Shown: positions 627 through 6,147, numbered from the stretch's first letter. The stretch is DNA of 6,166 bases from a virus (IMGVR_UViG_2675903536_000005); one strand, 5' to 3'. The notes: a model not told the origin generated them from the letters alone. Numbers and translations are program-made.

Positions 627-671
627 AAGCTGTGTGGCGAAGTAACCACTCTTAACACGATACAATAGTTT

Positions 672-700
672 TTGCGTACGCGTTAGTGGTTATGTAAACT
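672..700 (+). promoter_or_regulatory. Candidate sigma70 promoter for the cargo operon
   Basis: TTGCGT (672-677), 17-bp spacer, TG-n-TAAACT (693-700, extended -10-like), about 40 bp upstream of the ATG at 740. Sequence inspection only. Confidence 0.25.
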
Positions 701-1775: not shown

Positions 1776-2351
1776 ATGATTAGTATATTTTCACATTTAT
1801 TTAGACCGTTTGGTTACCTTTTCATTAAGGGAATTAGTGGTAAGTGCGCATACGATTTTTATGCACCTGCCGGGCTTGCTGTGATTTCTTTTTTTTACTT
1901 TTATTTATTTAAAATACCTACATCAGACCTACTAAAAGATGGCGGCTTTATTAAGTCTATATCTGGATTTGTATCAAATCTGCCAGGTTTTTATATAGCA
2001 GCTCTTGCAGCAATAGCCACTTTCAACAGAGAACAAATTGACTACCCTCTGATAGGAACTAATGGCACTCCTTTTATTAAAATTACACGAACAAAAGAAA
2101 ATGGTAGAATTGTTGACACTCAAGAGAAACTTACCAGAAGATTATTTCTGTGCATGTTATTTTCATTTTTAACTGCCCTCAGCATATGCATAGTGATTTT
2201 CAACGCTTTTATCACACCACTAATAAACATACTGAATAATGATATAGCAAACTGGTGCTATATCATTATCTTTTTATTCCTTACATGGCAAATGCTTGTT
2301 TCAACATTTTTTGGACTATACTATCTTGGTGATAGGATTCACATTAATTAA
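1776..2351 (+). CDS. Cargo gene 2: 191-aa integral membrane protein with four predicted TM helices (RexB-like topology), candidate effector/channel
   Basis: SD GAGG at 1767-1770 overlapping the gene 1 stop, 5 nt before ATG 1776. Hydrophobic segments YAPAGLAVISFFYFYLF, FVSNLPGFYIAALAAIATF, LFLCMLFSFLTALSICIVIFNAFI and WCYIIIFLFLTWQMLVSTFFGLYYL, with a charged loop between TM2 and TM3. Local pattern (LFxxIP...DG...IAALAAIATF) resembles lambda RexB (IAILIAALTF) from memory. Confidence 0.75.
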   Translation: MISIFSHLFRPFGYLFIKGISGKCAYDFYAPAGLAVISFFYFYLFKIPTSDLLKDGGFIKSISGFVSNLPGFYIAALAAIATFNREQIDYPLIGTNGTPFIKITRTKENGRIVDTQEKLTRRLFLCMLFSFLTALSICIVIFNAFITPLINILNNDIANWCYIIIFLFLTWQMLVSTFFGLYYLGDRIHIN

Positions 2352-2723: not shown

Positions 2724-3713
2724 TCAGGACAGCACACCAATCGCCAGCGCGCGATCGATAAAACGAAATATCAGCTCCAGTTGGGAACCATACTTCTCTT
2801 CAAATGCCACGGTATCCGCATGCAGTTCGTCATGGTGTTTTCTGCACAAAGGCAACACAAAAAGGTCATGCGCTTTAGTACCCATTCCACCCTGACCATG
2901 GCCAATCAGGTGATGCGGATCGTCGGCTGGCTTACCACAACATGCACACGGCTGCGTCTTAACCCAGCGCGTGTACTTTTCATTAACCCAGCGACGACGT
3001 TTGGGGCGTAACATAAAAGACTCCGGCGACTCCGGATCCACTTTCAGCGCCAGCACCTTTTTCGCTTTATCCTGGATAATGCTGGTGGCAGGAACCGAAG
3101 GCACAAGGTCACTCTCCCGGGTGACAGACGGCAAAACAGGCTTCGGTAATCTCAGGGCCTTACGGGCTGCACTTTCCGGTAAGGCATCCGCCAGGTCATT
3201 ACGAACCAGCCACCAGCACAGTTCCGGCATTGTCACAACGTGACTGTCATCAAAACCAAGATCACGGCGCACAACAGACAACACCCAGCGGGCACAGTTA
3301 TCCGTTGCCATTGATTCCAGCCGTTCCGTGAACTGGTCACGGAGAAGATTGTCACAGTGCCAGCACAGACGGATTGCGCCCGGAGCGTGTCGCATTGTGG
3401 TCATGTTCTCGCTGTGCCAGTCGGAATGAGGCCACTGGCAGCCTTTTTCACGAAGTAACCAGCTTTCAAGACATTCCACGCCACCAGCACGACGGATCAC
3501 TGCCTCATTGCGGAACACGGCCCGAACGGCAAGATCATCCGCCAGCGGTTGTGATGCCGCCGGAACGGCACCACTGGCGAAAGATGAATAACGTTCCGGC
3601 TCAGGCTCCAGCAGGACACGCCCCTGCATAAACAAGGGCATCAGCTCTGAACCTGGTCTGAACAATACGATCCCCATACGCGGGGCAATTTCAGGGGTCA
3701 GTAGTGCTCTCAC
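2724..3713 (-). CDS. DUF968-like prophage protein with C-terminal HNH-like Cys/His zinc motif (YdfU-like)
   Basis: C-terminus CACCGKPADDPHHLIGHGQGGMGTKAHDLFVLPLCRKHHDELH shows CxxC...HH...PLCxxHH...H, typical of HNH-type/DUF968 proteins found next to Q in lambdoid prophages. Start ambiguous: GTG 3719 (track), GTG 3713 (preferred, SD GAGG 5 nt upstream) or ATG 3677. Confidence 0.7.
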   Translation of the reverse strand: MRALLTPEIAPRMGIVLFRPGSELMPLFMQGRVLLEPEPERYSSFASGAVPAASQPLADDLAVRAVFRNEAVIRRAGGVECLESWLLREKGCQWPHSDWHSENMTTMRHAPGAIRLCWHCDNLLRDQFTERLESMATDNCARWVLSVVRRDLGFDDSHVVTMPELCWWLVRNDLADALPESAARKALRLPKPVLPSVTRESDLVPSVPATSIIQDKAKKVLALKVDPESPESFMLRPKRRRWVNEKYTRWVKTQPCACCGKPADDPHHLIGHGQGGMGTKAHDLFVLPLCRKHHDELHADTVAFEEKYGSQLELIFRFIDRALAIGVLS

Positions 3714-3720
3714 GGTCACC

Positions 3721-4536
3721 TCAATGAACGGTATCGAGCAGCTTTAACAGCTCAGGGAATCGGGATTCGAAGAAATGCGGCTGCGTCTCGCGCGGATTTG
3801 CAGGACTGGTGATGTTCTTGCCGAACATGCAGCCTTTCGCGGTCAGCGACCAGAATTTTTTGATGTTGTTAATCGCGGTACGACTGTATCGTTCGCGTTG
3901 TTCAACGATCCCCAGCTTCGCCATCTGGTGATATGCCTGATTAGCCGTCAGGCGGATACCATACTGCTTCAGCAGTGCACTCAGCGACAGCGTAGGGCGG
4001 CTTGAACCATCTGGCGCATCAGCAGGTGCATCAATGGCATAGATCGGCATAAGTTCAGGAAGACCAGCTACCTTTGATAATTTCTGGTATGCACCAAGTT
4101 TCGAGGAGTTTGACAGATTTAGAGTCTTTGCTGCTGATTCAAGCAGAATGACCCCGGATTTAATTTTGTCGGATGTGGTTTCTTCTGGTGATGAATTATG
4201 AAGCGCATCAAAAGTACGTATCACTTTTAAGCTGAATGCCGGGCTGATCCACATTGCATATGCATAGACCAGCTCTTTACAGACATACGTCCCACCATTG
4301 CGCCCCTGAATGGTGATGACAGGAATACTACGGGAATCTCCCGTAGTTTCTTCTTCCAATAATTCCACAAGAGCCTTCGTTTCAGGACGACGCATAAACT
4401 CGTGAACTTCCAGCGAACGGGAGGAGCGATTCTCACCAGCGGCAAGAAGAGCAGCTTTCTGAAGGTCGTTAAGACAGTAGTTAGATTCGAAGTACTGGCG
4501 CACAGAAACGCCATCAATTACAAGCAACTGATTCAT
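3721..4536 (-). CDS. KilA-N domain protein with KilAC-like C-terminal domain (putative phage antirepressor)
   Basis: ATG 4536 with SD GGAG 6 nt upstream (track ORF starts 4 codons earlier at GTG). N-terminal region has the KilA-N signature (ITIQGRNGGTYVCKELVYAYAMWISPAFSLKVIRTFDAL); C-terminal part (LSALLKQYGIRLT...KKFWSLTAKG) resembles Ant/KilAC C-domains by recall. Confidence 0.75.
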   Translation of the reverse strand: MNQLLVIDGVSVRQYFESNYCLNDLQKAALLAAGENRSSRSLEVHEFMRRPETKALVELLEEETTGDSRSIPVITIQGRNGGTYVCKELVYAYAMWISPAFSLKVIRTFDALHNSSPEETTSDKIKSGVILLESAAKTLNLSNSSKLGAYQKLSKVAGLPELMPIYAIDAPADAPDGSSRPTLSLSALLKQYGIRLTANQAYHQMAKLGIVEQRERYSRTAINNIKKFWSLTAKGCMFGKNITSPANPRETQPHFFESRFPELLKLLDTVH

Positions 4537-4633
4537 TGGTTTCTCCACAAATTTTTATCCACGAGCGGGACTGCACTCCCTTTTCGTTGATGCAGGATGA
4601 ACTTACTGCGATTTTTAATAGTTATCAAGGATA

Positions 4634-4698: not shown

Positions 4699-5094
4699 TT
4701 ACCGAGTTGCTAATTTGCAACTCGCTTTTTCGTACTTACTGATAGTGATCTCGACCTTCCCCTCCGGGATAACCGGTCCCCACTCCACCAGCATTCTTTT
4801 CACCTGACTGTCGTCTTCCCACACACCCGCGTGGGTCAGGGCGTCAAACAGCGCCTTGTTATAGTTGTCCAGATCACGGATCCGGTTATCCGGAGGAAAC
4901 AACACGATCTCCACTGAAGCAGGTGCCGACGTTGGTTTTGGCAGACGACGTAACTGCTCAACTATTGCTGCACACGCCGCGCTCTGGAATTTTCGCCCCG
5001 CCGCGCTTATCAGGCTCTTACCAGCAAACGCCCCTTTGTTGGGGTGTCGCCAGTACGTGTTCACGCTGGGCGGAAAAGGCAGGATCAGCTTCAT
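4699..5094 (-). CDS. rusA: RusA-family Holliday junction resolvase (crossover junction endodeoxyribonuclease)
   Basis: 131-aa product aligns by eye to E. coli RusA: PFPPSVNTYWRH (RusA LPWPPSNNRYYRH), RDLDNYNKALFDALTHAGVWEDDSQV (RusA [26 protein letters not shown]). Start ATG overlaps the upstream stop (ATGA). About 7 residues longer at the C-terminus than canonical RusA. Confidence 0.9.
   Translation of the reverse strand: MKLILPFPPSVNTYWRHPNKGAFAGKSLISAAGRKFQSAACAAIVEQLRRLPKPTSAPASVEIVLFPPDNRIRDLDNYNKALFDALTHAGVWEDDSQVKRMLVEWGPVIPEGKVEITISKYEKASCKLATR
4703..4730 (+). terminator. Terminator-like hairpin plus T5 in plus-strand orientation, embedded in the 3' end of rusA
   Basis: 8-bp stem cgagttgc(4703-4710)/gcaactcg(4717-4724), 6-nt loop, followed on the plus strand by cTTTTTcg (4725-4732). 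It overlaps the last 8 codons of the minus-strand rusA ORF. No plus-strand gene is evident, so function is uncertain. Confidence 0.3.
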
Positions 5095-5417
5095 ACTTTC
5101 AGGCCTCTCTCATGTAACCAATGGGCTGCACGCAGCCTGGCGTTTTCCTCACCGGCAAGCAGTGAGCGGATAATCCCGACCGCCTCGCTGTCGTCGTCCT
5201 TCACCACGGTATGAAGCGTGATCCCCCGGGCCACACCACGCTTTATCGTGATGACGCCTTTTTTCTCCAGTGCGCGAAGATGCTCCACCGCTGCATTCAC
5301 TGAACGGTATCCCAGCATGGTTGCCACCTCCTGATTGGTTGGCGGGAAGCCACGTTCTTTCTGATAAGAAATCAGCATATCCAGCACCTGCTGCTGGCAT
5401 TGAGTTAACGTCGTCAT
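5091..5417 (-). CDS. LexA N-terminal DNA-binding-domain-like protein (108 aa), lacking the S24 peptidase domain
   Basis: QQQVLDMLISYQKERGFPPTNQEVATMLGYRSVNAAVEHLRALEKKGVITIKRGVARGITL parallels LexA residues about 5-70 ([62 protein letters not shown]), including the recognition helix S-x-NAA-x-EHL. The ORF ends after 108 aa with no Ser/Lys protease domain. ATGA start/stop overlaps on both sides. Confidence 0.8.
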   Translation of the reverse strand: MTTLTQCQQQVLDMLISYQKERGFPPTNQEVATMLGYRSVNAAVEHLRALEKKGVITIKRGVARGITLHTVVKDDDSEAVGIIRSLLAGEENARLRAAHWLHERGLKV

Positions 5418-6067
5418 GCCGCCATCTCCCTGACCAGTTTTTCCGCCTGCTGGCGAACCTGCGCCAGAAACGCCTCACCACATGCCTCAAGTTCATCGCG
5501 CCCGATGTAGCTGATTGCCGGTCCCTTCCAGGTCTTGTCGAAAACAGCAATAGCACCAGCGAAGAAAGCGCCTGTCGGCACCTGCTTCTCATCTTTCGGG
5601 ATAAACCAGGCAGGCAGTTCAAAACCAATACGCCCGCGAATAAAAGCAATATGATCTGCATCTTCCGGCCACCACACTTCGCTGGTGGCAGCTTTGATCA
5701 GGAAAACATAGCGCCCGCCTTTATCACGCATGGCACTGGCATGTTTCATGATGTAACGCATGCCGGTGATGTATTGCCCCTCATGCTGACTGGCGCGGCT
5801 GTATGGGGGATTACCAAAGGCAGCACCTTTAAGCTCCGCAAGACGTTCTGACCAGTCATGCGCCAGCGCGTTGTCTTCCGCCGTGTAATACGCGGCACAT
5901 TTGGCGTTATCACCGTCAGTGAACAGATCCAGAACAAACGGGCCAAACAGGGTGTTAATTCCCCAGAAAATGTTGTCCGGCGTGCGCCACTGATCGCCCA
6001 CTTCCTTCAGTTCATGGGCTGGTTTGTTCCGCAGTTCCACCAGCGCCTGGCAATATTTATTACTCAT
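5414..6067 (-). CDS. Phage Dam-family DNA N6-adenine methyltransferase
   Basis: Translation from ATG 6067 (MSNKYCQ..., GGGGG upstream) contains WRTPDNIF, NAKCAAYYTAEDNAL and the catalytic FGNPPY motif followed by WWPED and FIRGRIGF, matching the phage N6-adenine MTase family (T1 Dam-like) as recalled. The track ORF extends to a GTG at 6100. Confidence 0.85.
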   Translation of the reverse strand: MSNKYCQALVELRNKPAHELKEVGDQWRTPDNIFWGINTLFGPFVLDLFTDGDNAKCAAYYTAEDNALAHDWSERLAELKGAAFGNPPYSRASQHEGQYITGMRYIMKHASAMRDKGGRYVFLIKAATSEVWWPEDADHIAFIRGRIGFELPAWFIPKDEKQVPTGAFFAGAIAVFDKTWKGPAISYIGRDELEACGEAFLAQVRQQAEKLVREMAA

Positions 6068-6147
6068 TAAGCCCCCACGTAATTCCCTGACAGATACCAC
6101 TCTTCACCCGATGCAGCGCGCTTGCTGCTTTTCCGTAAGCACCGCTC

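Follow-up and report, generated by a model that had tools for sequence, protein, structure and literature searches.

A probable Rex-type membrane effector of the PDC-M53 family in a two-gene cassette beside antiterminator Q of an Escherichia coli lambdoid prophage

This study concerns two adjacent genes in the 6,166-nucleotide viral sequence IMGVR_UViG_2675903536_000005 (hereafter the window, i.e., the whole stretch of DNA analysed), which is the late-regulatory region of an Escherichia coli lambdoid prophage. Gene 1 encodes a soluble protein and gene 2, directly downstream on the same strand, a small membrane protein with four transmembrane (TM) helices. Our main conclusion, to which we assign a probability of about 75%, is that gene 2 encodes the effector, located in the inner membrane, of a RexAB-type anti-phage module that consists of two genes, is carried by a prophage and belongs to the family listed as PDC-M53 in PADLOC. 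Of the abortive-infection systems, Rex has been known the longest, and how it works has yet to be settled. The original prediction, made from the DNA sequence, had read gene 2 as the small four-TM effector of a two-gene, Rex-like abortive-infection system shared with gene 1. That reading is supported in kind by the PDC-M53 match, by membership in the same two protein families as RexABpp of Pseudomonas putida and by the fold predicted for gene 1; the specific sequence resemblance to lambda RexB that it also put forward proved no better than chance.

The family assignment follows from full-length matches to both components, with the A component directly upstream of the B component. In searches of PADLOC-DB v2.0.0, the hidden Markov model (HMM) of PDC-M53B aligned to residues 4–190 of the 191-residue gene 2 protein (E = 1.7e-54) and that of PDC-M53A to gene 1 over its full length (E = 7.8e-32), with three other A models giving weaker scores; both proteins also match PHROGs of unknown function (9879 and 8257). 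Functional information comes from P. putida KT2440, in which PP_5643/PP_5644 of prophage P1 were described as a 'RexAB-type' defence system (Rosendahl et al., Sci Rep 2026, PMC12894663). In that host, protection against phage requires both genes and heterologous phages are targeted; RexApp binds DNA, and its overexpression, provided that RexBpp is present, arrests growth and permeabilises the membrane, as seen by dye uptake and leakage of enzyme (PMC12894663). RexBpp is a four-TM protein for which AlphaFold 3 models a pentamer best, and suppressors of the toxicity map to rexBpp—with Y181H abolishing toxicity and F35 representing a further loss-of-function position (PMC12894663).

The P. putida system was connected to the window through the primers listed in Supplementary Table 2 of the same study (PMC12894663), which upon translation gave the termini MLIGQLANP...LYYLGYKLQE* for RexBpp and MHRTATFV...RLMV* for RexApp. 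These termini match a gene pair of Pseudomonas sp. 286 (locus L043), composed of a 188-residue B protein (MLISQLTKP...GLYYLGYKLQE) and a 330-residue A protein (MHRTATFVDIK...ALMV). Five of the seven residues mutated in RexBpp (W25, F35, L55, G153 and Y181) are identical, with the same numbering, in L043B, and the sizes agree as well (RexApp, 37.5 kDa including its tag; RexBpp, at least 181 residues, Y181 lying within LYYLGYKLQE). L043A and L043B score 6e-75 and 9e-58, respectively, on the family HMMs, and the gene 2 product shares 40% identity (E = 6e-30) with L043B, which serves as a close proxy of RexBpp. In the alignment made via L043B, F35 and Y181 of RexBpp correspond to F40, which is conserved, and to Y183, which is invariant, in gene 2. 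Because the primer-encoded termini match L043, L043 matches the family HMMs and gene 2 is 40% identical to L043B, we place the window pair in the RexABpp family, with PP_5643/PP_5644 belonging to the same two protein families. In the literature searched, PDC-M53 had one incidental mention, and no link to RexABpp was found.

Gene 2 (1776–2351, plus strand) is an open reading frame (ORF) of 191 codons that starts with ATG; its putative Shine-Dalgarno sequence overlaps the stop codon of gene 1 and lies 5 nt from the start codon, which suggests translational coupling (Table 1). An AlphaFold2 model built from a 41-sequence alignment (mean predicted local distance difference test score, pLDDT, 87.7; predicted template modeling score, 0.83) displays four long helices in a 2+2 arrangement, with TM2 kinked at L69-P70-G71. 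The same arrangement had been read from the sequence beforehand, and it is borne out by this model together with a positive-inside pattern across 69 homologues. The mean number of lysine and arginine residues in these family members is 2.4 in the N-terminus, 5.7 in loop 2 and 1.4 in the C-terminus, as compared with 1.25 and 0.9 in loops 1 and 3. This enrichment points to a topology with both termini in the cytoplasm and a cytoplasmic TM2–TM3 loop. The polar loop anticipated at 35–40 residues spans 39 (residues 84–122), and its two predicted strands (100–106 and 112–118) have pLDDT values of 72–80. Kyte-Doolittle hydropathy is strong for TM3 and TM4 (2.7 and 2.05) and weaker for TM1 and TM2 (1.41 and 1.57), the latter two falling below the usual cut-off of 1.6. 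In the family alignment, the invariant columns of the TM2 region are L69, P70, G71, F72, I74, A75, A76, L77, A78, A79 and F83; the basic pair R121-R122 at the end of the loop is likewise invariant, as are Q172, G180, L181, Y183 and G185 of TM4. Searches of Pfam and PHROG gave no holin family match for gene 2. Two domain labels were set aside as uninformative: a Pfam DUF2721 hit that missed the cut-off (E = 0.07) and the UniRef label 'DUF4013' carried by one homologue.

A separate observation concerns the gene 2 coding sequence. A hairpin at 2236–2269 (codons ~154–165), with a perfect 14-bp stem followed by a U-run, has a folding energy of -16.4 kcal/mol (z = -4.9 against shuffled sequences) and is terminator-like on both strands. 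It is kept in an Enterobacter homologue with one apparently compensatory change and is not found in phage SfII; the hairpin may attenuate convergent transcription of the cassette and Q.

The resemblance to lambda RexB was examined at several levels. The RexB string quoted in the original prediction is correct and corresponds to residues 24–68 of the true protein. Among the motifs said to be shared, the TM2 match G-x2-IA-x-L-x-A-x2-TF is real—the best-conserved stretches of the two families, LPGFYIAALAAIATF in the gene 2 family and YAGTMIAILIAAxTF in the RexB family, align with each other. LFxxxIP, however, is not shared (the window protein has LFKIP where RexB has LFRHYIP), and the spacings between the motifs differ. 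The profile search against the RexB family that had been proposed as a check returned no RexB match: gene 2 was unmatched by Pfam RexB (PF15968) at E ≤ 0.1 and by the PADLOC RexB model at E ≤ 1, although the PADLOC RexB and RexA models score lambda RexB and RexA at 8.6e-61 and 9e-110, respectively. BLASTP of the window proteins against the lambda Rex proteins found nothing, and a Foldseek search of the gene 2 model against viral models (BFVD) gave nothing at E ≤ 0.001. Profile-profile comparison with hhalign produced a local match of 22–23 columns between TM2 and RexB residues 41–63, at a probability of 0.2–0.3%, with E values of 0.33 (41 versus 15 sequences) and 0.21 (190 versus 23 sequences). 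Its score of 13.8 compares with 13.0 for a reversed RexB profile and 9.1–20.1 for 30 column-shuffled profiles, 9 of which reach 13.8. The caution that the match might be compositional was thus well placed, since the profile score is at chance level. Because there is no profile hit and the hhalign score lies within its nulls, gene 2 was not assigned to the RexB sequence family; to have four TM helices and two cytoplasmic termini is generic for a small inner-membrane protein and insufficient for such membership. On the strength of its architecture, the fold of its partner and its homology to RexBpp, the gene 2 product is classed as a Rex-type effector, and it is no demonstrable member of the lambda RexB sequence family.

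Could gene 2 nevertheless be a true, highly diverged RexB homologue, the cassette sharing an ancestor with lambda rexA-rexB? Such common ancestry would be compatible with the effector assignment, and several features are in its favor: the order of the genes is the same (a soluble A followed by a four-TM B, with an intergenic gap of 7 nt here and 15 nt in lambda), the predicted topology with both termini inside and a basic cytoplasmic TM2–TM3 loop agrees, and the RdgC/RexA fold is common to both A proteins. Furthermore, the sole local hhalign alignment pairs TM2 with TM2 at residues that never or hardly vary in either family (G, IA, L, A and TF), and under relaxed settings gene 2 and RexB become colinear over 123 columns. 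Against this stand the chance-level hhalign scores, the empty Pfam, PADLOC, BLASTP and Foldseek searches described above, and the difference in size, RexB having 144 residues and lacking the 39-residue hairpin loop. The HHpred analysis of the P. putida study likewise found no RexBpp homologue, its authors counting only five Rex-like systems (PMC12894663). On balance, we regard descent from a common RexB ancestor as possible but doubtful. Two further observations on the lambda RexB family itself are recorded here. Four of its homologues (P0123, P0128, P0130 and P0141) are named 'biopolymer transporter ExbB' in NCBI records, a label that may have arisen as an annotation artefact or may hint at a MotA/ExbB-like relationship. 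In addition, the most divergent RexB homologue (46% identity), from Sodalis sp. TME1 (L104:2501–2944), has no called RexA gene in its 2.5-kb upstream flank; it may be an orphan, or its rexA may have decayed.

The partner protein is linked to Rex by its predicted structure. The gene 1 model has an RdgC-like two-domain fold, its top structural matches being RdgC and lambda RexA, and gene 1 thus places a RexA-type protein directly upstream of gene 2. Sequence-profile methods did not recover this relationship: gene 1 was unmatched by Pfam RexA (PF15969) and PADLOC RexA, none of 139 gene 1 family members matched RexA or RdgC in Pfam (with nothing consistent in a per-member scan), and a deep gene 1 profile run against PDB sequences did not find 8TWQ. 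A decoration-protein match in the same PDB search (E = 0.94) was dismissed as spurious. Aligned by hhalign with a shallow set of six RexA sequences, drawn from the neighbours of RexB homologues and from viral contigs, gene 1 gave E = 0.31. The published HHpred probability of 98.2% for RexA with PP_5643 (PMC12894663) was not reproduced in our profile searches. Dimerisation and non-specific DNA binding are known for lambda RexA, its actinophage homologues and RexApp. The annotation of gene 1 also deserves a comment. RefSeq begins gene 1 at window position 863, as a 301-residue protein (WP_001208501.1; L002:9264–10169), where homologues have 340–342 residues; with the N-terminus encoded by 740–862, the PHROG and PADLOC profiles align from residues 1–8 and residues 8–22 form a confident β-strand. 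The homologue lengths, the profile starts and the modelled strand together indicate that the RefSeq protein is probably truncated at its N-terminus.

To place the pair in a broader context, we examined its distribution. Gene 2 has 609 homologue clusters (90% identity), found in Enterobacterales, Vibrio, Shewanella, Aeromonas, Halomonas and other groups. For gene 1, a word-based search yielded 34 close clusters and a full profile search 308 clusters (50% identity), nearly all with lengths of 310–340 residues and without Pfam domains. Among 80 species-representative genomes with a gene 2 homologue, covering α-, β- and γ-Proteobacteria, Nitrospira, Desulfovibrionaceae and Victivallales, 73 have an ORF of the gene 1 family directly upstream in the same orientation, adjacent or overlapping; of the seven unpaired loci, three sit at contig ends. 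The B protein is more conserved than the A protein in 98.9% of locus pairs (mean identity 37% versus 23%), and the divergences of the two correlate (Spearman rho = 0.56). Inheritance of the pair is thus modular: the membrane component evolves under constraint and the soluble one rapidly, a pattern that fits a fixed effector with a diversifying sensor.

The genomic contexts of the pair are those of mobile elements. The temperate Shigella phage SfII carries the same PDC-M53-type cassette (SfII_50, SfII_49) between holin S and Q; other homologues are found on a few plasmids and, in a Vibrio Vinavirales prophage, beside the integrase. Neighbours elsewhere include a phage holin, Q, CI-like repressors, integrase, Vsr, type I and MmeI restriction-modification components, AbiEii-like ATPases and ArdC. 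Prophage, integrase, plasmid and restriction-modification contexts of this kind are typical of mobile defence cargo.

The insertion site in the window tells a similar story. The cassette has a guanine-cytosine (GC) content of 31–35% in the GC profile of the window, as compared with ~50–57% in its flanks; it adjoins Q, runs on the plus strand antisense to the late operon, and is flanked by Q on one side and by a conserved block and terminator downstream of Q on the other. Its limits were bracketed with related prophages: homology to an empty site (L110, in which Q ends ~16 nt away) stops at 679, and homology to two prophages with other cassettes (L111 and L112) restarts at 2402 and 2390, respectively. 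The same arrangement as in the window occurs in 15 of 5,426 complete E. coli genomes, where it is annotated only as 'hypothetical protein'. In prophages that share this Q type, the position is taken by other plus-strand cassettes (L109:3227–5076, L111:4239–5700 and L112:3750–5477). One comprises a DUF262 protein and a HEPN-like nuclease that match PADLOC NsnA and PD-T4-2_A; another, an unrelated 308-residue soluble protein with a 182-residue multi-TM protein and no PADLOC hit, which could be another uncharacterised sensor and membrane-effector system; a third is a three-gene set led by a TIGR04255 protein. In prophages of this Q type, a hotspot of variable cassettes thus lies just downstream of Q.

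A chiefly non-defensive cassette also has to be considered, i.e., one that serves the life cycle of its prophage (for instance as a RexA-like modulator of the lysis–lysogeny switch, together with a membrane partner), excludes superinfecting phages or blocks injection, or acts in lysis timing in a holin-like manner. Lambda RexA can bias the CI/Cro switch without RexB, the cassette is located between Q and the lysis genes, and three of the neighbour proteins scanned were CI-like repressors, all of which would suit such a role. Nevertheless, lambdoid late regions are not the only location of the pair (it is also found beside integrases, restriction-modification and Abi-like genes and on plasmids), transcription runs opposite to the late operon, gene 2 has no holin family match, the P. 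putida homologues protect against heterologous phages, and the same insertion site carries a recognised defence system in another strain. A phage life-cycle role fits this distribution poorly, and we consider a mainly non-defensive function unlikely. The narrower reading of gene 2 as a holin or lysis protein was rejected because the gene lies on the opposite strand, has an obligatory partner and also occurs in non-phage contexts.

How the proposed anti-phage module would operate can be outlined from the P. putida system. In the lysogen, transcription of the cassette would run opposite to that of the late operon. The gene 1 protein, with its RdgC/RexA fold and probably a DNA-binding dimer, would sense an infection cue—probably phage DNA or a DNA-protein intermediate—and then activate the four-TM gene 2 protein, itself probably oligomeric. 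The latter would permeabilise or depolarise the inner membrane, leading to growth arrest and aborting the infection. For E. coli, we infer the defence activity, the trigger, the oligomerisation and the pore or permeabilisation mechanism by homology. The roles might instead be reversed, as in gp30/gp31 of mycobacteriophage Butters, with gene 1 acting as the toxic or defensive effector and gene 2 only sequestering or neutralising it until infection. This arrangement seems very unlikely: overexpressed RexApp is harmless without RexBpp, the suppressors lie in rexBpp, one of them at the position equivalent to the invariant Y183 of gene 2, and both genes are required for protection (PMC12894663).

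Several considerations weigh against assigning gene 2 as the membrane effector of an anti-phage module. Most P. putida cells kept their integrity and a two-hybrid assay showed no interaction between A and B (PMC12894663), which leaves the pore model itself unproven. Gene 1 is 20% identical to L043A, with a pairwise E value of 0.016; with A proteins this divergent, the trigger specificity, and possibly the regulation, may differ from those of RexApp. Moreover, the membership of PP_5643/PP_5644 in the two families was deduced from primer-encoded termini, lengths and the numbering of mutated residues, PDC-M53 is merely a computational candidate in PADLOC with no assigned mechanism, and the evidence at the E. 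coli locus itself consists of sequence and models.

The coordinates of the two genes, of the elements within gene 2 and of the surrounding window are compiled in Table 1.

Table 1. Features of the 6,166-nucleotide window (positions counted from its first nucleotide).
Feature	Position	Strand	Basis or remark
Low-GC inserted cassette (moron), approximate limits	687–2390	plus	GC profile and comparison with related prophages
Gene 1, 342 aa (amino acids), soluble; RexA/RdgC-fold partner, presumed sensor/activator	740–1768	plus	PADLOC PDC-M53A, PHROG 9879
GAGG, putative Shine-Dalgarno sequence of gene 2	1767–1770	plus	Overlaps gene 1 TGA stop (1766–1768), 5 nt before ATG; read from sequence
Gene 2, 191 aa, four-TM inner-membrane protein	1776–2351	plus	PADLOC PDC-M53B, PHROG 8257; RexBpp homologue
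TM1, residues 23–44	1842–1907	plus	AlphaFold2 helix; hydropathy peak 1.41
TM2, residues 58–82, family-invariant LPGFYIAALAAIATF; stretch paired with RexB in the original prediction	1947–2021	plus	AlphaFold2 helices 58–67 and 69–82
Cytoplasmic loop, residues 84–122 (39 residues), predicted β-hairpin 100–118	2025–2141	plus	AlphaFold2
TM3, residues 121–153, conserved LTRRxFLCMLFSFLTA(E/L)S	2136–2234	plus	AlphaFold2 helix; hydropathy peak 2.71
TM4, residues 156–189, ending in the invariant WQ...GLYYLG motif	2241–2342	plus	AlphaFold2 helix; hydropathy peak 2.05
Antiterminator Q, 125 aa	2344–2721	minus	Pfam Phage_antitermQ, 8e-44; context, outside the two-gene system
DUF968/HNH protein	2724–3719	minus	
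KilA-N protein	3721–4548	minus	
RusA	4699–5094	minus	
Protein with LexA-type DNA-binding domain	5091–5417	minus	
Dam-type methyltransferase	5414–6100	minus	

At its two ends, the cassette shows additional features. Gene 2 and Q are convergent and their 3' ends overlap by 8 nt (2344–2351), inside the palindromic TTAATTAA. The last ~15 codons of Q (2344–2390) fall outside the homology with prophages that have the same Q type and other cassettes, so the C-terminus of Q appears to have been remodelled by the insertion. On the gene 1 side, a scan for sigma-70 promoters upstream of gene 1 found none above threshold. A 42-nt block, ACCACTCTTAACACGATACAATAGTTTTTGCGTACGCGTTAG (645–686, plus strand), which includes the palindrome GCGTACGC, does not vary between the window, an Enterobacter prophage, phage SfII and a prophage whose cassette differs; in one further prophage, whose Q type is different, only the left 13 nt of the block (ACCACTCTTAACA) match before the sequences diverge. 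On the minus strand, the block lies immediately upstream of a strong intrinsic terminator (626–606). One possibility is that the block serves this Q type as its pR'/qut late promoter region, and the cassette would then separate Q from its target site; alternatively, it may be a shared promoter or operator of the cassettes.

These findings bear on how widely Rex-type defence is distributed. The family validated in P. putida is large (609 B clusters and 308 A clusters), spans α-, β- and γ-Proteobacteria and has been listed, unrecognised, as PDC-M53. It is also carried by lambdoid phages of tractable E. coli and Shigella, SfII among them, and thereby offers an E. coli-native model for an RdgC-fold sensor gating a four-TM effector, in which the invariant LPGFYIAALAAIATF, R121-R122 and GLYYLG are obvious targets for mutagenesis. 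For specialists, the E. coli locus is incremental rather than surprising, and its value lies mainly in the breadth of the family, the identity of PDC-M53 and the tractable hosts. As a tentative extension, we raise the idea that lambda RexAB, RexABpp/PDC-M53 and the actinophage Rex-like pairs might form one ancient superfamily, combining a four-TM oligomeric effector (with the TM2 core G-x2-IA-x-L-x-A-x2-TF) with a fast-diversifying RdgC-fold DNA sensor, and with the site beside Q in lambdoid phages as a dedicated hotspot for swapping such cassettes. If so, Rex-type abortive infection would be among the more widespread prophage defence modules of Proteobacteria, with hundreds of clusters, and not a matter of five isolated cases.

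Compared with known systems, the window pair is likened by description to the actinobacteriophage pairs Sbash gp30/31, CarolAnn gp44/43 and Butters gp30/31, which combine a cytosolic, DNA-binding RexA-like protein with a multi-TM partner, are prophage-encoded and act in heterotypic defence; unlike the window pair, they occur in Gram-positive hosts, and in Butters the roles are reversed. It differs from lambda RexA/RexB in that neither protein has significant sequence or profile similarity to its counterpart, B has 191 residues with the hairpin loop as against 144, A has 342 as against 279, and the cassette lies outside the immunity region, where it is not co-transcribed with cI. PADLOC PDC-M53, matched over the full length of both components, is the database class of the locus. 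The closest experimentally studied relative is RexABpp. It differs in that the A proteins share ~20% identity and in that the window represents an E. coli lambdoid element with the cassette beside Q in the late region, not downstream of a CI-like repressor. The two systems nonetheless consist of the same two protein families in the same order and of similar size (~330 followed by ~190 residues), with a four-TM B protein whose termini lie on one side of the membrane, a RexA-like fold in A and a prophage location.
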